DNA of 64,000 bases from Candidatus Shapirobacteria bacterium (GCA_020059745.1 JAGVBK010000004.1:100797-164796); one strand, 5' to 3'; positions 9,497-23,542 are shown, counted from the stretch's first letter. Made by a program: numbers and translations. Notes: generated by a model from the letters alone, not told the origin.

Positions 9497-9515
9497 AAAT
9501 TTATTTATTAGTTTT

Positions 9516-10367
9516 TTATCTAGATTTTTCTTCCCACTTATTTCCGTTTATCCGAACAATTTTTGTACATCGCCAATTTTCAATTGAGGCCAAAGGGTTT
9601 AACCTAATTCTTATCCGCTTTGTATCGTCTGCTCTACTCTTTTCATCCTTACCGCAAATAATTAAACCGGGGGTCTCAGCTAATTTGGGTCCGTCAAACA
9701 TTAGCAAACCATTGGGAACACAGGCTAATTCAAAATATTTTAAGGGTTGAAAACCTATTTTTTCAACTTCATATACCGCCTTCAAAAACATTGTTATACA
9801 AAGAAGCGGCTTGTCGTCAATTAAATAAAAGGGTGGCAGCTTCGGTTGAAAGTTATAGTTGATTTTACCATTCCCTTGATAATGCACAGGCCAAGGTGAA
9901 TTAATAATTCCGTTTTTCCAATCATCACCTCTACCTGAAACTTGATTAGGAGGAACAACCACTTCATTTGGATTATCATTTGGTCCAGTTAACTTAATAT
10001 CTAAATGAACCAATGTCTCTTTATTGGTAAAACGGATATCTCCGCCTGTTGGCAAACCAGGAAACCTAACTTCTGAAAAAGCTTTAATAATTTTTGAAGT
10101 AAGATTATAACTAATTGTTTTCTCTCCTAACTCTAGCCAGGGAACAGAATTCCCTGTTGGTTGTCTTCCTCTCTGCTCTGGAGGATAGTTTGACCAAAAA
10201 GGATATAGCTTCCAAGCGTATTCCGTAAAATCTAAATAGAGGTCGTCGGCAATATCAAGAACTATGCCCTTGATTTTAAGGCAATGCTCTTTTTCTACTT
10301 TCCGAACGGTTTCAAGGTTGTTAACGAAATAATCTCTAACCTTAAAATAACTTTTCGCGTCAGTCAT
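9516..10367 (-). CDS. Hypothetical protein, a candidate restriction endonuclease partner
   Basis: Lies 19 bp from the MTase stop and is convergent with it, a common Type II R-M arrangement. No firm PD-(D/E)xK motif. Confidence 0.3.
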   Translation of the reverse strand: MTDAKSYFKVRDYFVNNLETVRKVEKEHCLKIKGIVLDIADDLYLDFTEYAWKLYPFWSNYPPEQRGRQPTGNSVPWLELGEKTISYNLTSKIIKAFSEVRFPGLPTGGDIRFTNKETLVHLDIKLTGPNDNPNEVVVPPNQVSGRGDDWKNGIINSPWPVHYQGNGKINYNFQPKLPPFYLIDDKPLLCITMFLKAVYEVEKIGFQPLKYFELACVPNGLLMFDGPKLAETPGLIICGKDEKSRADDTKRIRIRLNPLASIENWRCTKIVRINGNKWEEKSR

Positions 10368-10469
10368 AGTCTATGTTTGGGAGAAATCTATCAACGACAG
10401 CTTACCATAAAAGCATTTGAAATGAAATAATCACCCTATTTTTTTTCTTAAGAGACTAGCGATGGAGGT

Positions 10470-10694
10470 GTGGCTAATAATGGCCAAACAAAGAGGTTAC
10501 CAGTAACTTTGTATGGCTATCAGTTCTACGAAGAAAATGACATTGCTCAGGGCACACTTTACTTTGGTGACTGGAGCTACTATGTGATTGGAGACAGACA
10601 GACCATTTCGGTCAGGACAACGACTGAAGGAGGCGACGCTTGGAGGAGAAACGCTATGGAGAGTAATAAAGATACTCTATTTCGTAGAAATTAG
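10470..10694 (+). CDS. Hypothetical small protein
   Basis: ORF only. Confidence 0.3.
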   Translation: MANNGQTKRLPVTLYGYQFYEENDIAQGTLYFGDWSYYVIGDRQTISVRTTTEGGDAWRRNAMESNKDTLFRRN

Positions 10695-10746
10695 TAGAAA
10701 ATACTAGAAAACTTGACATCGCAATTTTTACCATTAATATGGAGGT

Positions 10747-11670
10747 ATGACCACCATATGTGAGGGCTGTACCATTGAATTTGCACCAAAGAGGAATGGC
10801 CAAAAATATCATAGTAGAGACTGTTTTCTGAAAGCCACACTAAAACTTCTTGTTTGTCCCCATTGTGGCCAAAAGTTTCAAAAAAAATTCTCTGGCCAAA
10901 TTTGCTGCTCCCGGAAGTGTTCCTATAAATTTAGGGCAAAGAAGGTTAGCAGGGGCAGTATTGTTTATTGCTCTCTTCCTTCCTGCAGTAAGGCAATATA
11001 CAGGATGCCGTCTAGAATTAAAAAGTATAATTTTTGCTGCTCAGAACATAGGGCTCTCTACCAAAAATCTCCTGAAAATAAGGACTTCGGCAAAGGGTGG
11101 AAACATACTGCCGAAGAAATCGCGAAAATTAGGCAAGCTAACTTAAACAGGGATTATAGTCAGACATTTACGGAGGAAGAAAGAGCTAAGGCTGCTAAAA
11201 GGGCGAGGAACAAGGTATGGACTCCTGAAGCTAGGAAAAATGCCAGCTTATCTCATTTGGGTAAGAAACTCCCAGAAGAGCAAAAACGAAAAATAAGGGA
11301 GAATTCTCCCAAAGGCGAGGAAAATAAACAATGGAAAGATGACGATGCGAGCTATGCGGCAAAGCATAGTTGGGCCAAAAGGCACATGGAAAAACCAAAG
11401 GTTTGTGCCTTCTCCCAAACCGAGGGGCATCTCTGTAAAGGAAGGTTGGAACTAGCCAACAAAAATCACCAGTATGAAAGAAATATTGACGATTGGGCTT
11501 GGATGTGCCGGTACCATCACGATAAATTTGATGTCGAAAACGGCTTGCGCCGCCTGACCCCCAAAACGGTGAAAATTTACGGGAAGTTTATTAACCCGAA
11601 AGTAAAAAATTTAAGCATAAGTGGCATAGTAGATAACCCAACAATTAGTCCTAATTTGAACTATCAATAA
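10747..11670 (+). CDS. HNH endonuclease with NUMOD3-like repeats and a Cys-rich N-terminus (homing-endonuclease-like)
   Basis: N-terminal CxxC clusters. Repeats GWKHTAEEIAKIRQAN and VWTPEARKNASLSHLGKKLPEEQKRKIREN resemble NUMOD3. The C-terminus HLCKG...NHQYERNIDD...CRYHHDKFD is HNH-like. Confidence 0.6.
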   Translation: MTTICEGCTIEFAPKRNGQKYHSRDCFLKATLKLLVCPHCGQKFQKKFSGQICCSRKCSYKFRAKKVSRGSIVYCSLPSCSKAIYRMPSRIKKYNFCCSEHRALYQKSPENKDFGKGWKHTAEEIAKIRQANLNRDYSQTFTEEERAKAAKRARNKVWTPEARKNASLSHLGKKLPEEQKRKIRENSPKGEENKQWKDDDASYAAKHSWAKRHMEKPKVCAFSQTEGHLCKGRLELANKNHQYERNIDDWAWMCRYHHDKFDVENGLRRLTPKTVKIYGKFINPKVKNLSISGIVDNPTISPNLNYQ

Positions 11671-11971: not shown

Positions 11972-13498
11972 ATGAAGACTTGCTACGCCTACATTAGGGT
12001 TTCTACTGATGAGCAAAAGAATAAAGGTTATTCTCCAGATAATCAAATTAGGCAGGTTAGAGATTATACTGAACTACACGAATATCGCATCAAGAAGATA
12101 TTTGATGATAGTGGAAGAAGCGGGCGGTCAACGGAGCATCGGTATGAACTTCAGAGTTTATTAAGTGCAGTCGACTCTAACCCGGTAGATGCCGTCATAA
12201 TATATAAAATTGACCGCTTTGCCAGAAATGTCGGAGATTTTGACAGGATTTATAAAAATTTTAAGACAAAAGGTATTAAACTTATTTCTGTTACTGAAGG
12301 CGATTTAACAGAGGGAAATAGTTTAATTCCCAATATTTTTGCTTCTGTAGCCCAATGGGAGTCAGAAGCAAATAGTTTGAGAACAAAAGATGCTTTGGCT
12401 CAAAAATTTGAAGAAGGCTGGCAACCAACCCCTCCCCCTATTGGCTACCGAACAGTTGGTGGGGAAAGGGAAAAAAAGACTTGTGAGCCTGACACTTATA
12501 CTGCGCCGATAATAAAAGAGCTTTTTAAAATGTATTCCACTGGAAATTATTCAATTCTTGCTTTGCAGGATTGGCTAAGTCAAAAGAACATTGTTTCTAA
12601 AAATGGAACCGGATTGGGACATAGTGTTATTTGCAATATCCTTAATAATCCTTTTTATTATGGACTAATTCGCTGGCATGGGGAGTCAAAAATCGGCAAG
12701 CACAAACCAATAATAGATAAATCGCTTTACGAGACGTGCCAGTATATTTTAGCTAAACATCGTAGTTTCCTAATTAGGAAGCGGGTACATGATTACTTAT
12801 TGAGAGGTTTCATCTTTTGTCATTATTGTGGCCAAAGGTATACTGCCGAACCTCATCCCAACCATTCAGTTAATAAACCTGGGGTAATCCATTACTATCA
12901 TTGCCCTAAAAGAGAACGAAATGGTTGCCCTTCAAAATACATTGAGGCAGATACTCTTGAGAAACAGATAGAAGAAGAGTTTAAAAAGCTCCAATTTAGC
13001 GAAGAATTCATTGAAGCAGTGATAAGGAAGGCCAAAGAAATCATCGCCCAAAACAGAAGAGAAAAGTCATCAGTAATGCGAGGTATTATTAATCAAAAAA
13101 ATGCTTTGGAAAATAAAAGGAATACCCTTGAAGATGCATTGTTAGATGGCACTATTGATAGAGAAACCTTTAAACGCCGCCATAATGCTTTGCAACAGCA
13201 ATTAATTAACTTAGATAACCAAATAACAGAATTTGACAACCAGGGGAAAATCGATATTGACTTAATTGAGGAAGTGCTTGCTTTTACGAGGGACATTTAT
13301 CAAACATATATTGAAGCCCCCGATTACCTTAAAAGGCATTATCTAAGGTTTTTCTTTGAGAAAGTTATAGTGAAGGATAAGAAAATATATAAAGTAATCC
13401 CGACTCCTATATTCAAAATATTGAAAAATAGGCACGAAATTATAATAAGAAAGAATTGGCTCCCCCGCGTGGATTCGAACCACGAACCTACCGCTTAA
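11972..13498 (+). CDS. Large serine recombinase (integrase)
   Basis: N-terminal resolvase catalytic motif YAYIRVSTDEQ, a recombinase domain, a zinc ribbon CHYCGQ...HCPKRERNGC and a C-terminal coiled coil. The ORF's 3' end reads into tRNA-Asn. Confidence 0.85.
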   Translation: MKTCYAYIRVSTDEQKNKGYSPDNQIRQVRDYTELHEYRIKKIFDDSGRSGRSTEHRYELQSLLSAVDSNPVDAVIIYKIDRFARNVGDFDRIYKNFKTKGIKLISVTEGDLTEGNSLIPNIFASVAQWESEANSLRTKDALAQKFEEGWQPTPPPIGYRTVGGEREKKTCEPDTYTAPIIKELFKMYSTGNYSILALQDWLSQKNIVSKNGTGLGHSVICNILNNPFYYGLIRWHGESKIGKHKPIIDKSLYETCQYILAKHRSFLIRKRVHDYLLRGFIFCHYCGQRYTAEPHPNHSVNKPGVIHYYHCPKRERNGCPSKYIEADTLEKQIEEEFKKLQFSEEFIEAVIRKAKEIIAQNRREKSSVMRGIINQKNALENKRNTLEDALLDGTIDRETFKRRHNALQQQLINLDNQITEFDNQGKIDIDLIEEVLAFTRDIYQTYIEAPDYLKRHYLRFFFEKVIVKDKKIYKVIPTPIFKILKNRHEIIIRKNWLPRVDSNHEPTA

Positions 13499-13531
13499 CA
13501 GGCGGACGCTCTACCGTTGAGCTACAGGGGA
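13457..13531 (-). tRNA. tRNA-Asn(GTT)
   Basis: Reverse-complement cloverleaf: acceptor TCCCCTG, D-arm AGCTCAACGGTAGAGC, anticodon loop CTGTTAA, T-arm GGTTCGAATCC, encoded CCA. Confidence 0.85.
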
Positions 13532-16535: not shown

Positions 16536-16564
16536 AAAGAGGAAGGGAAAAATTAAAGAGCTAT

Positions 16565-16640
16565 GCGGAAGAGGTGGGAATGTGTGCGCTTGCTTCGCAA
16601 TGCTCCGTTAATCCCGTCCTTCCTTGATGCGTTTCTGCGG
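16565..16640. repeat. ~72-bp repeat unit, copy A (a solo copy with no adjacent tRNA)
   Basis: A tRNA-Ser-3'-end-like GCGGAAGAGGTGGGA, then the core ATGTGTGCGCTTGCTTCGCAATGCTCCGTTAATCCCGTCCTTCCTTGA, then TGCGTTTCTGCGG. Confidence 0.5.
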
Positions 16641-16814
16641 TGTCTGTTTGAAAATATCCGAACGGAACTGGCTGGGCTCGGCGGGCGGAATTCCCCCCAC
16701 ACCCCTCTTCCGCCCGCCTCGCCTTGCCTGCCCGACAAATAGGCGGGAACCGGAGCGGAAAGGACGATTTCAAGTTTTTCTTTGGCGGCAAATTCTTTTA
16801 TTTCCTCTTCAGGA

Positions 16815-17744
16815 TTAACTATTTACGATAAATTCGACCAGCGCGTAAATTATCCAAAAGAATAAAAGCATGAATCCTTCTTTTTTCGTTATGGCGCGTC
16901 CTGAACGCATGAATCGTAATAACACGAAGGAGGCAACCACCATAAATGCCCCTGTGATATATATGATTTTTACTGGAAAATAAAATGGGCTTATGAAAGC
17001 AAGTATGCCAATGACAATAGTAGCGTCTGCCAGAACTGAACCTAAAATATCACCTATCGCAAGGCTGTCCTCTTTTTGTTTTATTGCTTTAAGCGAATAT
17101 AAGAATTCCGGCATTGTTGTTCCCAAACTAACAACGAGCATGCCAATAAGAATGGGGGTTATGTTTAATGTTTGAGCCAGCGTGGTTGCCGAAGTTACCG
17201 TAAAATGCGCACCTATGAGCAGCAAAGTCATAGCAAAGAGTAATAGAAATATATTTTTATACTTGCCATCACCGTTACTAAATACTTTTGACGCTTCTGT
17301 GCCATTCTTAAAAACTAAATAGTAGAAAAGAACCCCTGTAATTATCAAAATAGCACCATCAATACGGGAAAAATGTCCATTTAACCCCAAAATGACGGGA
17401 AGTAGCAAGAAGAAGGGGTACAGACTGACATTTTTTAACACCTTACTTTCGATTTTTACTCCGCGACCAGACAATAAAATTAAAAGAGCAAAAATAAGAG
17501 ACAGGTCGGCAATATTTGAACCAAATAATGTGCCGAGGCCAAATTCAGGTACCCCCTGAATTGCAGAATTTATTGAAATAATAGTTTCAGGCAGTATGGA
17601 GATAAAAGCAACCACAACAAAACCAATTACATAACGAGAGATACTAAAATGTTCCGCGAGTTTGGCAGAGTACTTTGTCGCCAAGGTAGCTCCCTTAACA
17701 ACAAGGGCTAACGAAAAGATAAATAGTAGCAAATTTTCGATCAT
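16815..17744 (-). CDS. CaCA-family cation/Ca2+ antiporter (YrbG-like)
   Basis: Two alpha-repeat regions (GSNIADLSLI and GDILGSVLADATIV) and about 10 TM helices. Confidence 0.8.
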   Translation of the reverse strand: MIENLLLFIFSLALVVKGATLATKYSAKLAEHFSISRYVIGFVVVAFISILPETIISINSAIQGVPEFGLGTLFGSNIADLSLIFALLILLSGRGVKIESKVLKNVSLYPFFLLLPVILGLNGHFSRIDGAILIITGVLFYYLVFKNGTEASKVFSNGDGKYKNIFLLLFAMTLLLIGAHFTVTSATTLAQTLNITPILIGMLVVSLGTTMPEFLYSLKAIKQKEDSLAIGDILGSVLADATIVIGILAFISPFYFPVKIIYITGAFMVVASFVLLRFMRSGRAITKKEGFMLLFFWIIYALVEFIVNS

Positions 17745-17746
17745 AA

Positions 17747-17953
17747 TTATTTCAATAAATCTTCAACGGAAACACCGAGCGCTTTAGCAATCTTGGCTAT
17801 CATCTGAACGCCTGGCTTTTTTACAAAATCGCCCTCAATTTTTGCAAGAGTGGAGTATTTGAGCTCGGCTTTTCGCGCCAAGTCGTCTTGGCTCAATTCT
17901 TGCTTCGTTCTCAATCGTTTTATATTTTCACCTATTGTTGCCATACTATCCAA
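17747..17953 (-). CDS. XRE-family HTH transcriptional regulator
   Basis: IGENIKRLRTKQELSQDDLARKAELKYSTLAKIE is a Cro/C1-type HTH. Confidence 0.7.
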   Translation of the reverse strand: MDSMATIGENIKRLRTKQELSQDDLARKAELKYSTLAKIEGDFVKKPGVQMIAKIAKALGVSVEDLLK

Positions 17954-18131
17954 GTTTTGATAACATAAAATTATGTTACAATCTTACTGTAAGATTATGA
18001 TAACGAATTTTCTGATTTTATTCAAGAAAAGCCCGCTTCTGGCCTTACTGAATTCAAAACGGCTTGAAATTTCCCCGAAAAACGGCTGGCGAGCCCGCGT
18101 AGCGGGCGAGCCAATGACTTCATTTCCTAAC

Positions 18132-18219
18132 TGGCGGAGAGAGCGGGATTCGAACCCGCGAGAGCTTTCGCCCTGCGCGCTTTCCAAGCGCGTGCACTCG
18201 ACCACTATGCGACCTCTCC
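18132..18219 (-). tRNA. tRNA-Ser(GGA)
   Basis: Reverse-complement cloverleaf: anticodon loop TTGGAAA, long variable arm, T-arm GGGTTCGAATCCC, encoded CCA. Confidence 0.8.
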
Positions 18220-18261
18220 AATAATTTAATTTTACCTTAGTTAGCTTTAAAAATCGACATT

Positions 18262-18335
18262 GCGCCTCTGGGAGGAATTGAACCTCCGACCCCCAGTTCC
18301 GGAAACTGATGCTCTATCCCCTGAGCTACAGAGGC
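18262..18335 (-). tRNA. tRNA-Arg(CCG)
   Basis: Reverse-complement: acceptor GCCTCTG, D-arm AGCTCAGGGGATAGAGC, anticodon loop TTCCGGA, T-loop TTCAATT. Confidence 0.75.
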
Positions 18336-18418
18336 AAATTACCCTAAAGCGGATTGCGTCCGCTGGGGTCACAGCAAAACATATGAAAGGCGTCGCGTAA
18401 TAATCTCGCCATATCAAG

Positions 18419-18497
18419 GCGGAAAGGGTGGGAGGGTGTGCGCTTGCTTCGCAATGCTCCGTTAATCCCGCCCTTCCTTGAAACTGCGTTTCTGCGG
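18419..18497. repeat. ~72-bp repeat unit, copy B, inserted at the 3' end of tRNA-Ser(CGA)
   Basis: GCGGAAAGGGTGGGA + core GGGTGTGCGC...CCTTCCTTGA + AACTGCGTTTCTGCGG, followed by a duplicated GCGGAAAGGGTGGGA that is the tRNA 3' end. Confidence 0.55.
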
Positions 18498-18579
18498 AAA
18501 GGGTGGGATTCGAACCCACGGTAGCTTGCGCCACACTGGTTTTCGAAACCAGCTCATTCGACCACTCTGACACCTTTCC
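18494..18579 (-). tRNA. tRNA-Ser(CGA)
   Basis: Reverse-complement: acceptor GGAAAGG, anticodon loop TTCGAAA, long variable arm, T-arm GGGTTCGAATCCC. Confidence 0.8.
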
Positions 18580-18581
18580 TG

Positions 18582-18654
18582 GTGCGCCCAGGAGGAATTG
18601 AACCCCCAACCTTTTGGACCGCAACCAAATGTTCTATCCGTTGAACTATGGGCG
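18582..18654 (-). tRNA. tRNA-Arg (anticodon read as GCG)
   Basis: Reverse-complement: acceptor GCGCCCA, D-arm GTTCAACGGATAGAAC, anticodon stem TTTGG/CCAAA with loop TTGCGGT, T-loop TTCAATT. An anticodon of GCG is unusual and should be confirmed. Confidence 0.6.
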
Positions 18655-18704
18655 CATTTAATTTGTAGCTTCTATATTATACCAGAATTCAGCCTTAAAT
18701 AGGC

Positions 18705-19271
18705 TTATTTTGAAGGCTTTTGTGAAGGTGGGCTTTTTTTCTCACTTTCAAGGGGAATTTTCTCAGAAAGCCAGGTTGAGGCATTGTCTAAAAATGTGGG
18801 TTCTGGCTCTTCCTCAAAAGCATATCTTAAAGAAATTTCCCTAATTTTTGCCTCGTCTCCCTCACCAATCATTAAGCTTAAACGAGAGGGGAAACCATAT
18901 TTAAGCTGGTAATTAACCATCTTTTGACCATATTTTTGATTTATCCAAAACTGCTCAACATTCTCCCAAGGATAAGTTTGGCCGGCATAAGCAACCCCCC
19001 GGTTTGTTAATCTATTTTCAATTTCTTCAGGAGGCACAGTAGAAAGAACATAAACTACAAAAACAAAAGCAATAATGGCGGCAATTAAAAAGAAATCTTT
19101 AACAAAGATTAAAATCAGGCTAACCAATAAAACAATAGCCAAAATCGTGCTCCAAAACTCCTTGTCTCTTTTTTTAAAAGGCCTTGTAGGCGCTTTCCAG
19201 GCGTATAAAACTTTTAGCTCTTTTGAGGGAATTACTTCTTGAATGGACTGAGAGGAATCAGACTCTGGCAT
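18705..19271 (-). CDS. Hypothetical membrane protein
   Basis: Two adjacent TM helices and a C-terminal soluble domain. No recognisable motif. Confidence 0.4.
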   Translation of the reverse strand: MPESDSSQSIQEVIPSKELKVLYAWKAPTRPFKKRDKEFWSTILAIVLLVSLILIFVKDFFLIAAIIAFVFVVYVLSTVPPEEIENRLTNRGVAYAGQTYPWENVEQFWINQKYGQKMVNYQLKYGFPSRLSLMIGEGDEAKIREISLRYAFEEEPEPTFLDNASTWLSEKIPLESEKKSPPSQKPSK

Positions 19272-19307
19272 TAAGTTAAGAATAAATCAAACAATCACCA
19301 AAATCAA

Positions 19308-19913
19308 TTATTTGTACATATAAATGGTAAAATCCTGGGGAGAATAGGTGTTTATAAGCTCCACTTTAGGAGTAACTGTCCGGCAAAACTCAGTCACTTC
19401 TTTTGAGTCATAAGCAGCAAAAAGCTCATCATCAATATGCCCTTTGGCATCAAGCATGTTAAAAGCAAGCCCAAGCTTACTTAAAGAAAACATTTTTTTA
19501 ATCATCTCAAAGTATTTTTCCTTGTGATTAGGAACCTTAAAAGACAAAGCTCCGGAAGAAAGGACATAATCAAAGCTTCCAGATTCAAAATTAAAAATAT
19601 CAAAAACCAGAAATTTAGCCTCTGGGTATTTAATTTTAGCTTTTTCTACCAGCTCCGGCACAGCATCAATACCCAGGTAATCAAAATCGCGATAACTTAG
19701 GTTAAGAAAGCGGTAAAGGTCCCCCAAGCCAGAACCAACATCTAAAATACTTTTTTTATCAAAATCCCCTACCCCGGTTAAAGCTTGGAACCTAATAAGC
19801 TGAGACTCTTCCCCTGCCCAATTTAAAGCTTTGGCGCTGTTAATGCCGTAAGTTTTTAATGATTTTATATAGTAATCCCTCAACCTGGTTTTATCTTGAT
19901 CTGAAAATTTCAT
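19308..19913 (-). CDS. Class I SAM-dependent methyltransferase
   Basis: Motif I ILDVGSGLGDL and a Rossmann-fold pattern. Confidence 0.7.
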   Translation of the reverse strand: MKFSDQDKTRLRDYYIKSLKTYGINSAKALNWAGEESQLIRFQALTGVGDFDKKSILDVGSGLGDLYRFLNLSYRDFDYLGIDAVPELVEKAKIKYPEAKFLVFDIFNFESGSFDYVLSSGALSFKVPNHKEKYFEMIKKMFSLSKLGLAFNMLDAKGHIDDELFAAYDSKEVTEFCRTVTPKVELINTYSPQDFTIYMYK

Positions 19914-19940
19914 CTTTGAAACTCTAAAAAATTTGGCAAT

Positions 19941-21164
19941 TTACCCAAACATCAACCATTCGGGTTTAAAAAGAAGCAATAAGCCAATAAAGAACATTAA
20001 AAAGCCGCCAATAAGATGGGAATAGCGAGAATATTTACTTTGCAAGCCTACGGCTTTGAGGGTAATCATGGCAGTGAAAAAAACAACTAAATCATCAATC
20101 ATAAAAATTAAAATATAAAAGAGAAGATAAAGGTAATACTGCCACTTTGGAAGTCCAGAAAGACTTAGAATTTGGGTATAAACAGCAGGCAGCCCCGCCG
20201 AACAAACAAGCTCTACTAAATTTACCGTTATTGCTAAAATGATTATTCCTCCCAGAGCAAGAAAGAATTCTTTTCTTTCGGTAATCGCTCGAATTTTTTG
20301 AAAAATCTTTTGTCTTTTTTTACTTCCCGTAACTGGGCAACTAGCTTCTTTGTTGGTCCAATAATCCCGAAGGTAATATCCTCCCGCGGTTAAAGCCACC
20401 AAACCGATTAAAATTCTAACCCAAATGACAAAACCTAAAAACAAAAATAAATTCAACCAGGCAGAAAGAAAAAGAAAATATACTGCTGCACTGGTAACAA
20501 TAAAAGTTATTCCCAAAATCCACATCCTCTTTCTGTCTTTCATACCTAAAAGCAAACTAATAAGGAATAATAGCGTCCACATGGCGCAGGGGTTAAAACC
20601 GTCTAAAAAGGCCAAAACAAAAGTTACGACCGGCAAGGATAACTGGTAAACATCAACTTCTCCAAAAAGAGGAAGTTTAACAAATTTATCTTTAGAGATA
20701 TTTTCTCCTTTTACTGAATTAGGGTTCGAGGAGGAAACTTCAGGCTTTACCTTTTTGTCCTCTGTCTCTTTAACGATTAAAGCCACTGGGTCTTCACAAG
20801 CGGTTTGAGAACATTCAATTATCTTATTTTCAATTTCTTTGGTGGTAATACCGTCAATAAACCCGAGAAAATGATCCTTTCCTATCACCAAAAAAGGCAC
20901 GCCCCCAACCTCAACATTTAAGTTTTCCGCAGTCTTTTGCAACAAAGCATTATTCTCCCGGTTGTGGTAAATCTCATATTCTTTTACTTTTAACTGTGGG
21001 TGCCTGCCTTCAAGCTCGTTAAGAAATTCCTGCATTTTCCCACAGTGGGGACAACCACGACCATAAAAGAAATAAGCATTAACAACAGGGGCTGCTCTCA
21101 CTTTTCCAAAAGAAGACAAAAAAAGAAACAGAGCTAAAAATAATATTTTTATTTTTTTATACAT
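19941..21164 (-). CDS. Thiol:disulfide interchange protein (thioredoxin-like domain fused to a CcdA/DsbD-type membrane domain)
   Basis: Signal peptide, thioredoxin motif GCPHCGKM, then TM helices with the conserved FNPCAMW. The ORF-track start at 21350 runs through a repeat and tRNA-Ser, so the start was reset to the MYKKIKILF ATG at 21164. Confidence 0.6.
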   Translation of the reverse strand: MYKKIKILFLALFLFLSSFGKVRAAPVVNAYFFYGRGCPHCGKMQEFLNELEGRHPQLKVKEYEIYHNRENNALLQKTAENLNVEVGGVPFLVIGKDHFLGFIDGITTKEIENKIIECSQTACEDPVALIVKETEDKKVKPEVSSSNPNSVKGENISKDKFVKLPLFGEVDVYQLSLPVVTFVLAFLDGFNPCAMWTLLFLISLLLGMKDRKRMWILGITFIVTSAAVYFLFLSAWLNLFLFLGFVIWVRILIGLVALTAGGYYLRDYWTNKEASCPVTGSKKRQKIFQKIRAITERKEFFLALGGIIILAITVNLVELVCSAGLPAVYTQILSLSGLPKWQYYLYLLFYILIFMIDDLVVFFTAMITLKAVGLQSKYSRYSHLIGGFLMFFIGLLLLFKPEWLMFG

Positions 21165-21224
21165 TATTTGTCTTGTGTTTAGTAAAAACCCAGGCCGGCC
21201 TTTCTTCCCCGTTTTCCTTAAAAC

Positions 21225-21320
21225 TGCGTTTTTGCGGAGAGGGTGGGAGGGTGTGCGCTTGCTTTGCAATGCTCCGTTAATCCCGCCCTTCCTTGATGCG
21301 TTTTTGCGGAGAGGGTGGGA
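21225..21320. repeat. ~72-bp repeat unit, copy C, at the 3' end of tRNA-Ser(TGA), with a 24-bp flanking duplication
   Basis: TGCGTTTTTGCGGAGAGGGTGGGA + core GGGTGTGCGCTTGCTTTGCAATGCTCCGTTAATCCCGCCCTTCCTTGA + TGCGTTTTTGCGGAGAGGGTGGGA, followed by TTCGAACCC of the tRNA. Confidence 0.55.
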
Positions 21321-21393
21321 TTCGAACCCACGGAGAACTTGCGTCCTCAATAGTTTTCAAGACTATCGCACTAGACCACTATGCGACCTCTCC
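21307..21393 (-). tRNA. tRNA-Ser(TGA)
   Basis: Reverse-complement: acceptor GGAGAGG, anticodon loop CTTGAAA, long variable arm, T-arm GGGTTCGAATCCC. Confidence 0.8.
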
Positions 21394-21406: not shown

Positions 21407-21490
21407 AAATAAATTAGCGGAGAGTGTGGGAGTCGAACCCACTCGGCGCTTTCGCACCGCAAGTTTAGCAAACTTGTGCCTTACCGTCCG
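21407..21490 (-). tRNA. tRNA-Ser(GCT)
   Basis: Reverse-complement: acceptor GGAGAGT, anticodon loop TTGCTAA, long variable arm, T-arm GGGTTCGACTCCC. Confidence 0.75.
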
Positions 21491-21537
21491 GCCCACTCTC
21501 CAGGATACCCATATTATACCCAAATTCACCTTTAAAT

Positions 21538-22260: not shown

Positions 22261-22707
22261 ATGAAAATCGTAAACAAAAAAGCAGGGTTTGATTATGAAA
22301 TCTCAGAGAAGATTGAGGCTGGCGTGGCCTTAACCGGAGCTGAAGTTAAATCGCTTTTTTCCGGCCAGGCAAGCTTGGATGAAGCTTATGTAAAAATAAT
22401 TGACGGAGAGGCTTTCTTAATTAATGCCCATATCCACCCATACCAATACGCCGATACCCGAAAAATTGATCCTAAGCGCACCAGAAAGCTTCTGCTTCAC
22501 AAAAAAGAGCTGCTTTCCCTTATTAATAAAATAAAGCAGAAAAATTTGATCATAATCCCCCTCTCGTGGTATAATATTGGTCACCAAATCAAGCTTGAGA
22601 TAGCCTTAGCCAAAGGTAAGAAAAAATGGCAAAAAAAAGAAGCTATTAAAAAGCGAGACTTGGAGAGGGAAATAGAACAAACAATCGGCAAAAAGATTAA
22701 AAACTAA
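22261..22707 (+). CDS. smpB: SsrA-binding protein SmpB
   Basis: KAGFDYEI...GVALTGAEVKS...LLLHKKE match SmpB. tmRNA lies immediately downstream. Confidence 0.9.
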   Translation: MKIVNKKAGFDYEISEKIEAGVALTGAEVKSLFSGQASLDEAYVKIIDGEAFLINAHIHPYQYADTRKIDPKRTRKLLLHKKELLSLINKIKQKNLIIIPLSWYNIGHQIKLEIALAKGKKKWQKKEAIKKRDLEREIEQTIGKKIKN

Positions 22708-22791
22708 TTTTTGCGGCGATTCAATTGAAGATCGCAAAAATTACCTTGAAGGATGATTTTTTGAAAGAAACCTCGGTTTCTTTCAATGAAA

Positions 22792-23165
22792 AGGGGATGC
22801 ACTGGTTTCGACGGGAAGCGCTCTTTTAAAACTGCAAGCCTCCTTTGAATCACAGGAGTAAAAAAGATTCAAAAAAGAAAAGACAACGATTATTCTGTTG
22901 CCCCTAGCGTTAACTACAACGTTAACTACGCTTTTGCGTAAATAGGCATCTTTAAAATTTCTTGCTTGCCGGAAGCTTAAAGGTGTAAACAAAGACAAGA
23001 CGCAGGCTGCTGGTTTGCCAAACACCAGTTGCCAAAGCCTAAGTTTGGCAACCTCTAGCTTTCCAGGTTAACGGATCAGGCTAGAGGTAAAAAAGTTAAC
23101 CTAAGCTTGTAGAAGTTTTAAATTAGACTTTTCGGATTCCGGTTCAATTCCGGACATCTCCACAC
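22792..23165 (+). ncRNA. ssrA: tmRNA (SsrA)
   Basis: 5' end GGGGATGCACTGGTTTCGACGGG. A tag reading frame ends ...VAPSVNYNVNYAFA with TAA at 22939-22941. A T-arm-like TCCGGTTCAATTCCGGA is followed by the 3' acceptor CATCTCC-A. CCA is not encoded. Confidence 0.75.
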
Positions 23166-23305
23166 TCCGCCCCGCCGAATCGGCGGGGCTTCGCGTGGTA
23201 AACCACACTTCGTCAACCGAAGAAACCTGTTCGATTTGATAAGGAGTGTGCCCCTACTGAAGCTCGAAGAGCGAAAGGGGGCTATGCTCTGGTAAAATTT
23301 TATAT

Positions 23306-23542
23306 GTGTATTATGTTTATATTCTCAAACTTTCTGACAATTCTTTTTATGCTGGTTTCTCTTCCAACTTAAAACAAAGGATTAAAGCTCATAACGATGG
23401 TTGCATCGAATCGACTAAAAACTTACGACCTTTAAAATTAGTATATTATTCTGCTTTTACTTCTAAAGAAAAGGCAACAAAATTTGAAAAATACTTAAAG
23501 CCTAGTTCAGGTTTTGCTTTCAGAAACAAACGGCTTGTTTAA
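23306..23542 (+). CDS. GIY-YIG nuclease-family protein (UPF0213-like), GTG start
   Basis: YYVYILKLSDNSFYAGFSSNLKQRIKAHN is a GIY-YIG motif. Confidence 0.7.
   Translation: MYYVYILKLSDNSFYAGFSSNLKQRIKAHNDGCIESTKNLRPLKLVYYSAFTSKEKATKFEKYLKPSSGFAFRNKRLV

Follow-up and report, generated by a model that had tools for sequence, protein, structure and literature searches.

A small repeat unit at tRNA-Ser 3′ ends in Candidatus Shapirobacteria: a possible miniature integrative insertion or att scar

The stretch of DNA considered here, referred to below as the window, is 64,000 nucleotides (nt) or 64 kilobases (kb) in length and comes from Candidatus Shapirobacteria bacterium (GCA_020059745.1 JAGVBK010000004.1:100797-164796); all coordinates are positions in the whole window. 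Our subject is a short repeat unit found at the 3′ ends of serine tRNA genes. Three copies, named A, B and C in window order, lie at 16565–16640, 18419–18508 and 21234–21320, respectively, and are 90–98% identical. The tRNA genes, as placed by ARAGORN and Rfam, are on the minus strand and the copies therefore lie directly 3′ of tRNA-Ser. The features of the region are listed here, with the tRNA’s own last 15 nt designated the proximal core and their downstream copy the distal core.

16565–16638, minus strand: copy A, made up of the distal core (16565–16579, TCCCACCTCTTCCGC), loop (16580–16611), anti-core (16612–16623, GGAAGGACGGGA), trailer (16624–16636) and GC junction (16637–16638).
16639–18131, minus strand: mobile cassette between copy A and tRNA-Ser(GGA), with a ~124-nt terminal repeat arm (16639–16762), a fragment of serine-recombinase coding sequence (CDS), a Na/Ca exchanger gene (16815–17744), an Xre-type helix-turn-helix (HTH) gene (17747–17953) and a leader/arm (18025–18131); Pfam.
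18132–18219, minus strand: tRNA-Ser(GGA), probable former partner of copy A, with the junction ...CTCTCC-GC-CAGTTAGG; its CCA is completed by the cassette arm.
18262–18335, minus strand: tRNA-Arg(CCG) (ARAGORN, Rfam).
18419–18433, minus strand: distal core of copy B, an exact 15-nt direct copy of the tRNA-Ser(CGA) 3′ end; identity ends right after G73-C74.
18434–18493, minus strand: insert of copy B, 60 nt, with trailer 18493–18478 (AGAAACGCAGTTTCAA), anti-core 18477–18466 (GGAAGGGCGGGA) and loop 18465–18434, the loop hairpin being GCATTGC-GAA-GCAAGCGC.
18494–18579, minus strand: tRNA-Ser(CGA), whose last 15 nt (18494–18508, TCCCACCCTTTCCGC) are the proximal core of copy B (ARAGORN; Rfam tRNA, 58.3 bits; repeat mapping).
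18580–18655, minus strand: tRNA-Arg(GCG) (ARAGORN, Rfam).
21199–21224, minus strand: remains of the left part of an older, decayed copy that lies behind copy C (GTTTTAAGGAAAACGGGGAAGAAAGG versus GTTTCAAGGAAGGGCGGGATTAACGG; repeat family 80% over 50 nt; BLAST 21214–21236; alignment).
21234–21248, minus strand: distal core of copy C (TCCCACCCTCTCCGC); the 24-nt repeat is 21225–21248 = 21297–21320.
21249–21305, minus strand: insert of copy C, 57 nt, with trailer 21305–21293, anti-core 21292–21281 and loop 21280–21249; the hairpin loop is AAA, not GAA.
21306–21393, minus strand: tRNA-Ser(TGA), proximal core 21306–21320, located 23 nt downstream of tRNA-Ser(GCT) (ARAGORN, Rfam).
21417–21501, minus strand: tRNA-Ser(GCT) (ARAGORN, Rfam).

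Read along the minus strand, the unit begins with the tRNA end (consensus TCCCACCC(T/C)TTCC-GC), followed by a 13–16-nt trailer (consensus A(G/A)AAACGCA(GTT)TCAA), the 12-nt anti-core (GGAAGG(G/A)CGGGA), a 32-nt loop that includes a small hairpin (GCATTGC-(G/A)AA-GCAAGCGC) and, finally, a copy of the last 15 nt of the tRNA. The insert that separates the tRNA from its duplicated end is 57–60 nt long and GC-rich. The tRNA’s final 15 nt recur once, 75 nt downstream in copy B (18494–18508 and 18419–18433) and 72 nt downstream in copy C (21306–21320 and 21234–21248), with a match at all 15 positions in both cases and, in copy C, at 24 of 24 positions when the trailer is included. The distal cores of B and C are exact copies of the neighbouring tRNA end, though those two tRNAs differ from one another at one position. 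Direct-repeat identity starts at the T-loop/T-stem border and stops at G73-C74. An intact tRNA at one boundary with a direct partial 3′ copy at the other is seen in copies B and C, copy A having only a partial tRNA-like end. The ends of the insert (AGAAACGCA... and ...GCGCACACCC) do not form an inverted repeat with each other; the one formed by anti-core and core is internal and lies to one side.

The original prediction for this locus placed copies B and C exactly at the 3′ ends of tRNA-Ser(CGA) and tRNA-Ser(TGA), which ARAGORN and Rfam bear out, and proposed that the terminal 11–24 nt of the tRNA had been duplicated. The duplication is real in the form of the 15-nt direct copies, but the 24 nt at copy C reflect a decayed older copy lying behind it rather than a longer target duplication: the 24-nt repeat runs on into the decayed left part of the older unit, a sequence arrangement that indicates two successive units at a single tRNA. 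That earlier account was also incomplete in having overlooked the internal anti-core, which gives an acceptor/T-arm minihelix-like fold and therefore opens a rival explanation at the RNA level.

That the three copies form a repeat family is confirmed by pattern scanning, repeat searching and alignment. A 33-nt core pattern matches the window exactly three times (at 16584, 18438 and 21253), with no matches expected in shuffled sequences, and a repeat search of the window returned a 77-nt family (16564–16640, 18418–18494 and 21233–21309) with ungapped identities of 81–90%; on gapped alignment of the three units the mean column identity is 93%. The 48-nt core previously said to be common to all three holds overall, except that copy A begins ATGTG and not GGGTG. 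The outer flanks of the three copies are mutually unrelated. No further copies were found in the window by core-pattern scan or BLAST, and the count in 64 kb stands at three plus one remnant, every one of them at a tRNA-Ser end. Differences between A, B and C fall at fixed positions and the copies are thus distinct loci. The structure of the unit is identical, with zero differences, in four independent assemblies (contigs L001, L002, L003 and L037, from JGI, NCBI, Logan and a second JGI assembly) and so is not an assembly artefact; contigs from other assemblies do stop near the repeats, L003 ending inside copy B and L001 55 nt short of copy A.

Copy A carries a tRNA-Ser-end-like sequence and has no adjoining tRNA, as the original prediction had it, but it is not the isolated solo copy that was described: it abuts a 1.5-kb mobile cassette whose far end abuts tRNA-Ser(GGA). 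The cassette (HTH plus Na/Ca exchanger) sits precisely between the two, integrated at the G73-C74 junction. The outer end of its right repeat (...TTCAAACAGACACC) meets copy A at GC 16637–16638, and its far end meets tRNA-Ser(GGA) at the CTCTCC-GC junction listed above. The copy A junction, CAGACACC-GC-AGAAACGCA (CACC-GC), is in register with the tRNA-Ser(CGA)/copy B junction, TTTCC-GC-AGAAACGCA. Window positions 16636–18046 are 99% identical over 1423 nt to L038/L041/L042, where the context is unrelated, and the 309-amino acid Na/Ca exchanger is found as an identical protein in quite different contigs. In L038 the cassette (9515–11121) has terminal inverted repeats of ~137 base pairs (bp), its neighbours are unrelated genes and no tRNA is close by. 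Contig L036, from another sample, agrees with the window over copy A and on through dnaG and rpoD, starting at 16714 and with a single mismatch in 11,961 nt (at window 16707). The cassette at its copy A junction (L036 1–922, compared with window 16639–16830), upstream of a 74-nt shared repeat end, is nevertheless a different one, comprising an HTH gene and a gene for a VTT-domain protein and oriented the opposite way. L036 reflects an exchange of cassettes within a subpopulation or else a chimeric assembly joined via the 74-nt shared arm. Judged from these sequences, that is, from the 99% identical copy in an unrelated context (L038) and the alternative cassette at the same junction (L036), the window cassette is mobile.

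Two candidate extensions of copy A were considered and rejected. A large RNA closed by GCGGAAGAGG/CCTCTTCCGC would have as its upstream arm the cassette terminal repeat, which travels with the cassette in other genomes, and a 10-nt inverted match to the copy A core (16704–16713) likewise lies inside the cassette repeat and moves with the cassette. It can also be observed that, of the four tRNA-Ser genes, only tRNA-Ser(GGA) has a genomically encoded CCA, the inserted cassette arm contributing the C and A as its opening bases (CC-GC-CAGTTAGG).

The cassette belongs to a wider family. The 22-nt outer end of the cassette repeat is present in at least 120 metagenome contigs, usually continuing CGCCA and then into unrelated sequence, and the family is found beside large serine recombinase genes at tRNA-Ser 3′ ends. 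Inverted repeat pairs spaced 1.0–1.8 kb apart each enclose a conserved Xre-type HTH gene (encoding 65–71 amino acids) and one variable cargo gene. Members include window 16639–18131, L038 9515–11121, L086 2539–4138 and L044–L163, with terminal inverted repeats of ~75–137 bp ending ...TTCAAACAGACACC-GC; the cargo includes Na/Ca exchanger, MFS-like, VTT/DedA, MBL-fold and other proteins, and no transposase is carried. In L086 (946–2600), a gene for a 490-amino acid large serine recombinase is flanked by 85-bp inverted arms (CAGTTAGGAAATG...) that adjoin a tRNA-Ser and, at the opposite side, an HTH-cargo cassette, both contacts falling at a GC that corresponds to tRNA G73-C74. Both arm types, recombinase and cassette, are palindromic around this GC. 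Cassettes hold fragments of L086-type recombinase CDS (KEFAAKEKLEIV) at the inner repeat boundary and therefore look like deletion derivatives in arrays. Among the matches listed, tRNA-Ser accounts for 61 of the 121 tRNAs on cassette-arm contigs, and a recombinase-element arm follows directly after 13 of 58 non-redundant tRNA-Ser genes. On this sequence evidence, tRNA-Ser 3′ ends are a hot spot for recombination and integration in this lineage.

Layouts analogous to that of the unit occur elsewhere. We scanned 106 non-redundant tRNAs with sufficient flanking sequence on the contigs examined (excluding other loci from the same organism but including the window’s own tRNAs) for a same-strand copy of the tRNA’s last 14 nt, with at most one mismatch, 20–400 nt downstream. 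Such a copy was found for ten of the 106 and in none of three control searches. Seven analogues lie outside the window on unrelated contigs: L014 Ser(GCT), L072 Ser(GGA), L079 Ser(GGA), L085 Ser(TGA), L120 Met, L126 Ser(CGA) and L152 Glu. In the six that were compared in detail (all but L152) the repeats are 13–22 nt long, and in five of the six they start in the T-loop and end 0–4 nt past the discriminator; L085 is the exception, its exact 13-nt repeat being confined to the T-arm and belonging to an imperfect 46-nt copy of the tRNA-Ser 3′ half. Repeat identity passes the tRNA end into the trailer in several modules. The inserts (84–221 nt) are unrelated in sequence to the window unit. In all but L085 the 5′ segment is predicted to pair with the distal copy, closing a multi-hairpin fold, with several GNRA and UUCG loops in the larger modules; L126, L014, L072 and L120 fold 3–13 kcal/mol better on the tRNA strand and L079 slightly better antisense. 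No Rfam families were identified for the analogue modules. The L079 module is absent from the related L106 locus, where the downstream block is conserved, and such modules are therefore sporadic rather than conserved. The L125 locus has an L126-like module right after a cassette end, the same position as copy A in the window.

As regards the individual modules, inserts of 107–221 nt precede the duplicated 3′ end at L014 272–448, L072 10190–10395, L079 1023–1146, L120 1995–2157 and L126 8180–8420, with a further module at L125 1878–1931. The L126, L014 and L125 inserts have sequence blocks in common (CGCAGCGATGTGCGAGTT and a TTTCCGTCAGGAAA hairpin).

What, then, is the unit? The explanation that we tentatively favour is that it is a miniature, gene-less integrative (Campbell/att) insertion, or an attachment-site (att) scar, specific to tRNA-Ser 3′ ends. 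Such a unit would start right after tRNA G73-C74, bring with it 57–60 bp of its own sequence and close with the 3′ end of a tRNA-Ser, from the final base of the T-loop up to G73-C74. Insertion would leave an intact tRNA on one side and a partial tRNA on the other, as when a circle carrying a tRNA 3′ segment recombines with the gene. The unit may have been copied between tRNA-Ser genes by a recombinase supplied in trans, with the internal anti-core/core hairpin belonging to the recombination site, and copy A may once have stood directly behind tRNA-Ser(GGA) or another tRNA-Ser-like gene. The older decayed unit stacked behind copy C would, on the same reasoning, mean repeated insertion at one site. 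An origin at the DNA level is ranked first because of the specificity for tRNA-Ser ends, repeats that track the local tRNA, limits of identity typical of att sites, the stacked older remnant, the sporadic occurrence of comparable modules and the location in an integration hot spot. The original prediction of a mobile or integrative remnant targeting tRNA-Ser is supported to this extent: the association with tRNA-Ser is strict, flanking direct copies are present, the site is a recombination hot spot and similar layouts occur sporadically elsewhere. Searches for an empty site, polymorphism, an assignable recombinase and an outside homologue found none of these.

These and several further observations weigh against an integrative origin. 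No presence/absence polymorphism or empty site was seen in L001, L002, L003 or L037 (or, for copy A, L036), which are 100% identical to the window at these loci. No recombinase gene lies in or beside the gene-less 57–60-bp insert, the nearest and only one in the window being a serine recombinase gene (11972–13498) that abuts tRNA-Asn. A circle of 72–75 bp is implausibly small as a classical excision product, and both cores in B and C match the local tRNA whereas a simple exchange by a tyrosine or serine recombinase predicts one donor core. There are no terminal inverted repeats at the unit’s ends. Five of 15 positions differ between the copy A core (TCCCACCTCTTCCGC) and the end of tRNA-Ser(GGA) (TCCCGCTCTCTCCGC); either copy A never duplicated tRNA-Ser(GGA) or its partner was swapped by recombination at the GC site. 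The idea that the unit derives from the recombinase-cassette arms was tried and rejected: local alignment to both arm types is no better than to shuffles (p 0.21–0.53) and only the position of the GC junction is shared. As to relatives, BLAST found no further copy of the unit in 1.06 Mb of fetched contigs, and 0.62 Mb of related contigs likewise yielded nothing homologous when searched with a covariance model built on the three copies. Genome, metagenome and viral collections scanned for exact 20-mers gave no match, the source contigs evidently being outside those collections. Phage and plasmid records, searched with the insert by BLASTN, gave chance matches only, and a protein database search with all open-frame translations of the unit, aimed at spurious open reading frames (ORFs) over the copies, gave none. 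Confidence in the integrative origin is limited by the lack of a recombinase, empty site or circular junction, by both cores being local, by the small size and by the unit’s being unrelated to the cassette arms.

The main rival, a lesser but real possibility, is that the unit encodes a small tRNA-like minihelix RNA co-transcribed with tRNA-Ser. Anti-core and distal core are imperfectly complementary, and in such an RNA the two (GGAAGGG-CGGGA and TCCCA-CCTTTCC) would form a 12-bp acceptor-plus-T-stem with an expanded T-loop. Release of this RNA would fall to RNase P, RNase Z and the CCA-adding enzyme, and it might act as transcript punctuation before the next gene or as a mimic of the tRNA-Ser acceptor stem; local gene conversion would keep the distal core identical to the tRNA. 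Folding of the core, suggested in the original prediction as a check, does give the same predicted hairpin in all three copies: an 11–12-bp stem with one bulge or mismatch and an inner hairpin, the order of its strands (acceptor then T-stem) resembling the tRNA top half. The unit is always on the tRNA strand and closes every tRNA-Ser transcription unit in the window (GCT-TGA, GCG(Arg)-CGA and, before the cassette arrived, CCG(Arg)-GGA), with a same-strand gene after each copy (dnaG, tRNA-Arg and a 407-amino acid protein gene), and the only substitution in the small hairpin falls in its loop. The larger analogues also close with an acceptor/T-like helix, four of them (L126, L014, L072 and L120) favouring the tRNA strand, and have GNRA and UUCG loops. 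Against this, thermodynamic support for the fold is weak (z-scores of only −1.4 to −2.4), and the antisense strand of the window copies folds 3–6 kcal/mol better, C.A mismatches becoming G.U pairs. There are no compensatory changes in the three copies: the anti-core is constant and the distal core different in A, B and C, giving each helix a different bulge or mismatch. Rfam searches of the window region and the six analogous loci, at gathering thresholds and at E<10, returned tRNAs and transfer-messenger RNA (tmRNA) only, with no non-coding RNA family matching the unit, and a scan for promoters and terminators found nothing within the units. The failure of the covariance model to find a homologue, the extension of repeat identity beyond the tRNA end into the trailer in several modules and the sporadic distribution of the modules among relatives also count against a processed RNA. 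A broader proposal, which we regard as rather unlikely, would place the unit, as the smallest example, in a so far undescribed group of structured modules from the Candidate Phyla Radiation (CPR), located behind tRNAs and closed by a helix that copies the acceptor and T stems (a ‘tRNA top-half’ tag). These would be small mobile RNAs or DNAs using the tRNA-like end for processing, replication or integration, as well as extra landing sites for serine-recombinase cassette arrays.

Three other explanations appear weaker. The unit is unlikely to be a degenerate, internally collapsed tandem duplicate of a tRNA-Ser gene, neither mobile nor functional, with the three loci kept alike by gene conversion. 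Such a duplicate would run from acceptor 5′ strand through a remnant body to T-stem 3′ strand and acceptor 3′ strand, and the unit does have acceptor-5′-like and T/acceptor-3′-like ends in tRNA order; it starts 13–16 nt past the tRNA, comparable with the 23-nt tandem spacing of Ser(GCT) and Ser(TGA), and L085 provides a clear 46-nt imperfect duplicate of a tRNA-Ser 3′ half. Yet the three bodies are nearly identical while the adjoining tRNAs are only ~72% alike, and the bodies are therefore copies of one sequence and not three local duplications. The body is also without a tRNA signal at E<10, and gene conversion would be needed between loci for the 48-nt body and, simultaneously, inside each locus for the 15-nt core. 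Decidedly unlikely is a scar or minimal substrate of the serine-recombinase system of the HTH cassettes, with left and right arms joined, nothing between them, and recombination at GC = G73-C74. Here the identity of the copy B repeat stops exactly after GC, the GC that copy A and the cassette junctions also use; the cassette arms are palindromic around it, with ends that mimic a tRNA end (...CAGACACC-GC-CA); and the recombinase gene and cassettes are found at tRNA-Ser genes in many contigs. With its 57–60 bp the unit is also roughly as large as a serine-recombinase phage attachment site (attP). However, neither arm type shows significant similarity to the unit (p = 0.2–0.5), the unit’s ends are not mutual inverted repeats, the anti-core lying 13–16 nt inside the left end, and there is no matching recombinase in the window; moreover, exchange at GC predicts an element-borne and identical distal core, whereas those of A, B and C differ. 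Finally, it is highly improbable that the unit is a generic intergenic repeat resembling the repetitive extragenic palindromic (REP) type, or an assembly artefact, its association with tRNAs being coincidental. It is short, GC-rich, hairpin-forming and intergenic, and the contig breaks in L003 and L001 might be read in the same way; but each of the three copies in 64 kb goes with a tRNA-Ser end, none being found elsewhere in the window, the sequence is identical in four independent assemblies and the fixed-position differences mark distinct loci.

Other features of the region can be described briefly. The ORF at 19941–21350 was originally suspected of having a spurious N-terminal extension and this proves correct, its first 62 codons reading through copy C and the tRNA; the true start is an ATG at 21164, giving a protein of 407 amino acids, with homologues of 395–413. 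This thioredoxin-like membrane protein (19941–21164), encoded between copies C and B, has as its closest relative a protein of no more than 66% identity, and its homologues (L005, L007 and L010) lie in varied contexts, including beside type IV secretion/conjugation genes; it may itself be horizontally acquired cargo. Synteny searches with this protein found no comparable locus, the homologues being in unrelated and partly conjugative contexts. Searches via ComF found no relatives in a genome scan, and the two closest relatives (68–71% identity) are on 1.8–1.9-kb contigs that end inside tRNA-Ser(GCT) and do not reach as far as the site of the unit. In these two (L015 1206–1670 and L016 1156–1788) an extra ORF of 154–210 amino acids with a weak HTH match lies between comF and tRNA-Ser(GCT), where the window has only 36 nt. 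Just past the tRNA-Ser cluster, at 22261–23542, are SmpB, tmRNA (22793–23163, tag VNKDKTQAAGLPNTSCQSLSLATSSFPG) and a small GIY-YIG ORF (23306–23542). The serine recombinase gene at tRNA-Asn (11972–13531 region; 508 amino acids) runs ~40 nt into the tRNA-Asn 3′ end (13457–13531, opposite strand), and the adjoining 4.7–13.5 kb holds genes for a BglI-type restriction enzyme, an N6/N4 methyltransferase and a LexA-like repressor together with a phage-capsid fragment. The 4.7–13.5 kb region probably represents an element that integrated at tRNA-Asn; the tRNA-Asn end was found only once in the window. A scan of viral contigs for the duplicated-end pattern turned up a single prophage family, in which the tRNA-Ser att site is an ordinary one and the second match is due to chance.

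If the unit is indeed a miniature integrative insertion, integration at tRNA sites can leave, and even propagate, units far below any described integrative element in size, and the signature to search for is a tRNA separated by a short insert from an exact duplicate of its 3′ end. A processed tRNA-like RNA, should the unit prove to be one instead, would represent a new class of small RNA tied to serine tRNAs. The results also mark tRNA-Ser 3′ ends as the main site of gene exchange in these very small genomes, at which single-cargo cassettes controlled by a small HTH protein, common to unrelated organisms, may be swapped between otherwise identical cells. This cassette family, met while explaining copy A, may be a more remarkable object than the unit.

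How does the unit compare with known systems? Rules for the sublocation of integration within tRNA genes were reportedly set out by Williams in 2002. Cis-mobilisable elements (CIMEs) are att-flanked sequences without recombination genes, whilst miniature inverted-repeat transposable elements (MITEs) are miniature derivatives of transposons. Like both, the unit lacks genes, has site repeats on its flanks and presumably relies on an enzyme acting in trans, but it is orders of magnitude smaller than described CIMEs and, unlike MITEs, was found to have neither terminal inverted repeats nor a short fixed target duplication. Casposons produce 14–15-bp target duplications, often at tRNA 3′ ends, and the unit similarly has a 15-bp direct duplication that includes a tRNA 3′ end; it differs in having no terminal inverted repeats at the insert ends, and no Cas1-type gene was seen in the annotated part of the window. 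At the level of its predicted fold the unit resembles a tRNA minihelix or the tRNA-like domain of tmRNA, with an acceptor-like stem stacked on a T-stem-like stem, a G discriminator and sequence from a tRNA 3′ end, though the helix is imperfect, there is no T-loop consensus, covariation or Rfam match and extra sequence occupies the T-loop position; the genuine tmRNA in the window is a separate gene. REP-like repeats, in contrast to the unit as seen in the 64-kb window, occur as many dispersed copies independent of particular genes.

Closest of all in layout are the tRNA-integrating elements, for which partial tRNAs flanking the element and stacking behind it are a hallmark (bioRxiv 10.1101/2020.12.28.424599). 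The unit differs from these in having only 57–60 bp between its repeats, no genes and no linked integrase, in being present as three near-identical copies at different tRNA-Ser isoacceptor genes, in having both repeats match the local tRNA and in its internal anti-core. As in the partial-tRNA att repeats of genomic islands, prophages and tycheposons (bioRxiv 10.1101/2020.12.28.424599), however, the unit has a complete tRNA at one end matched by a direct partial 3′ copy at the other, its block of identity extends from the T-loop, or just beside it, to the vicinity of the tRNA end, and newer and older units are stacked one behind another, leaving remnants.

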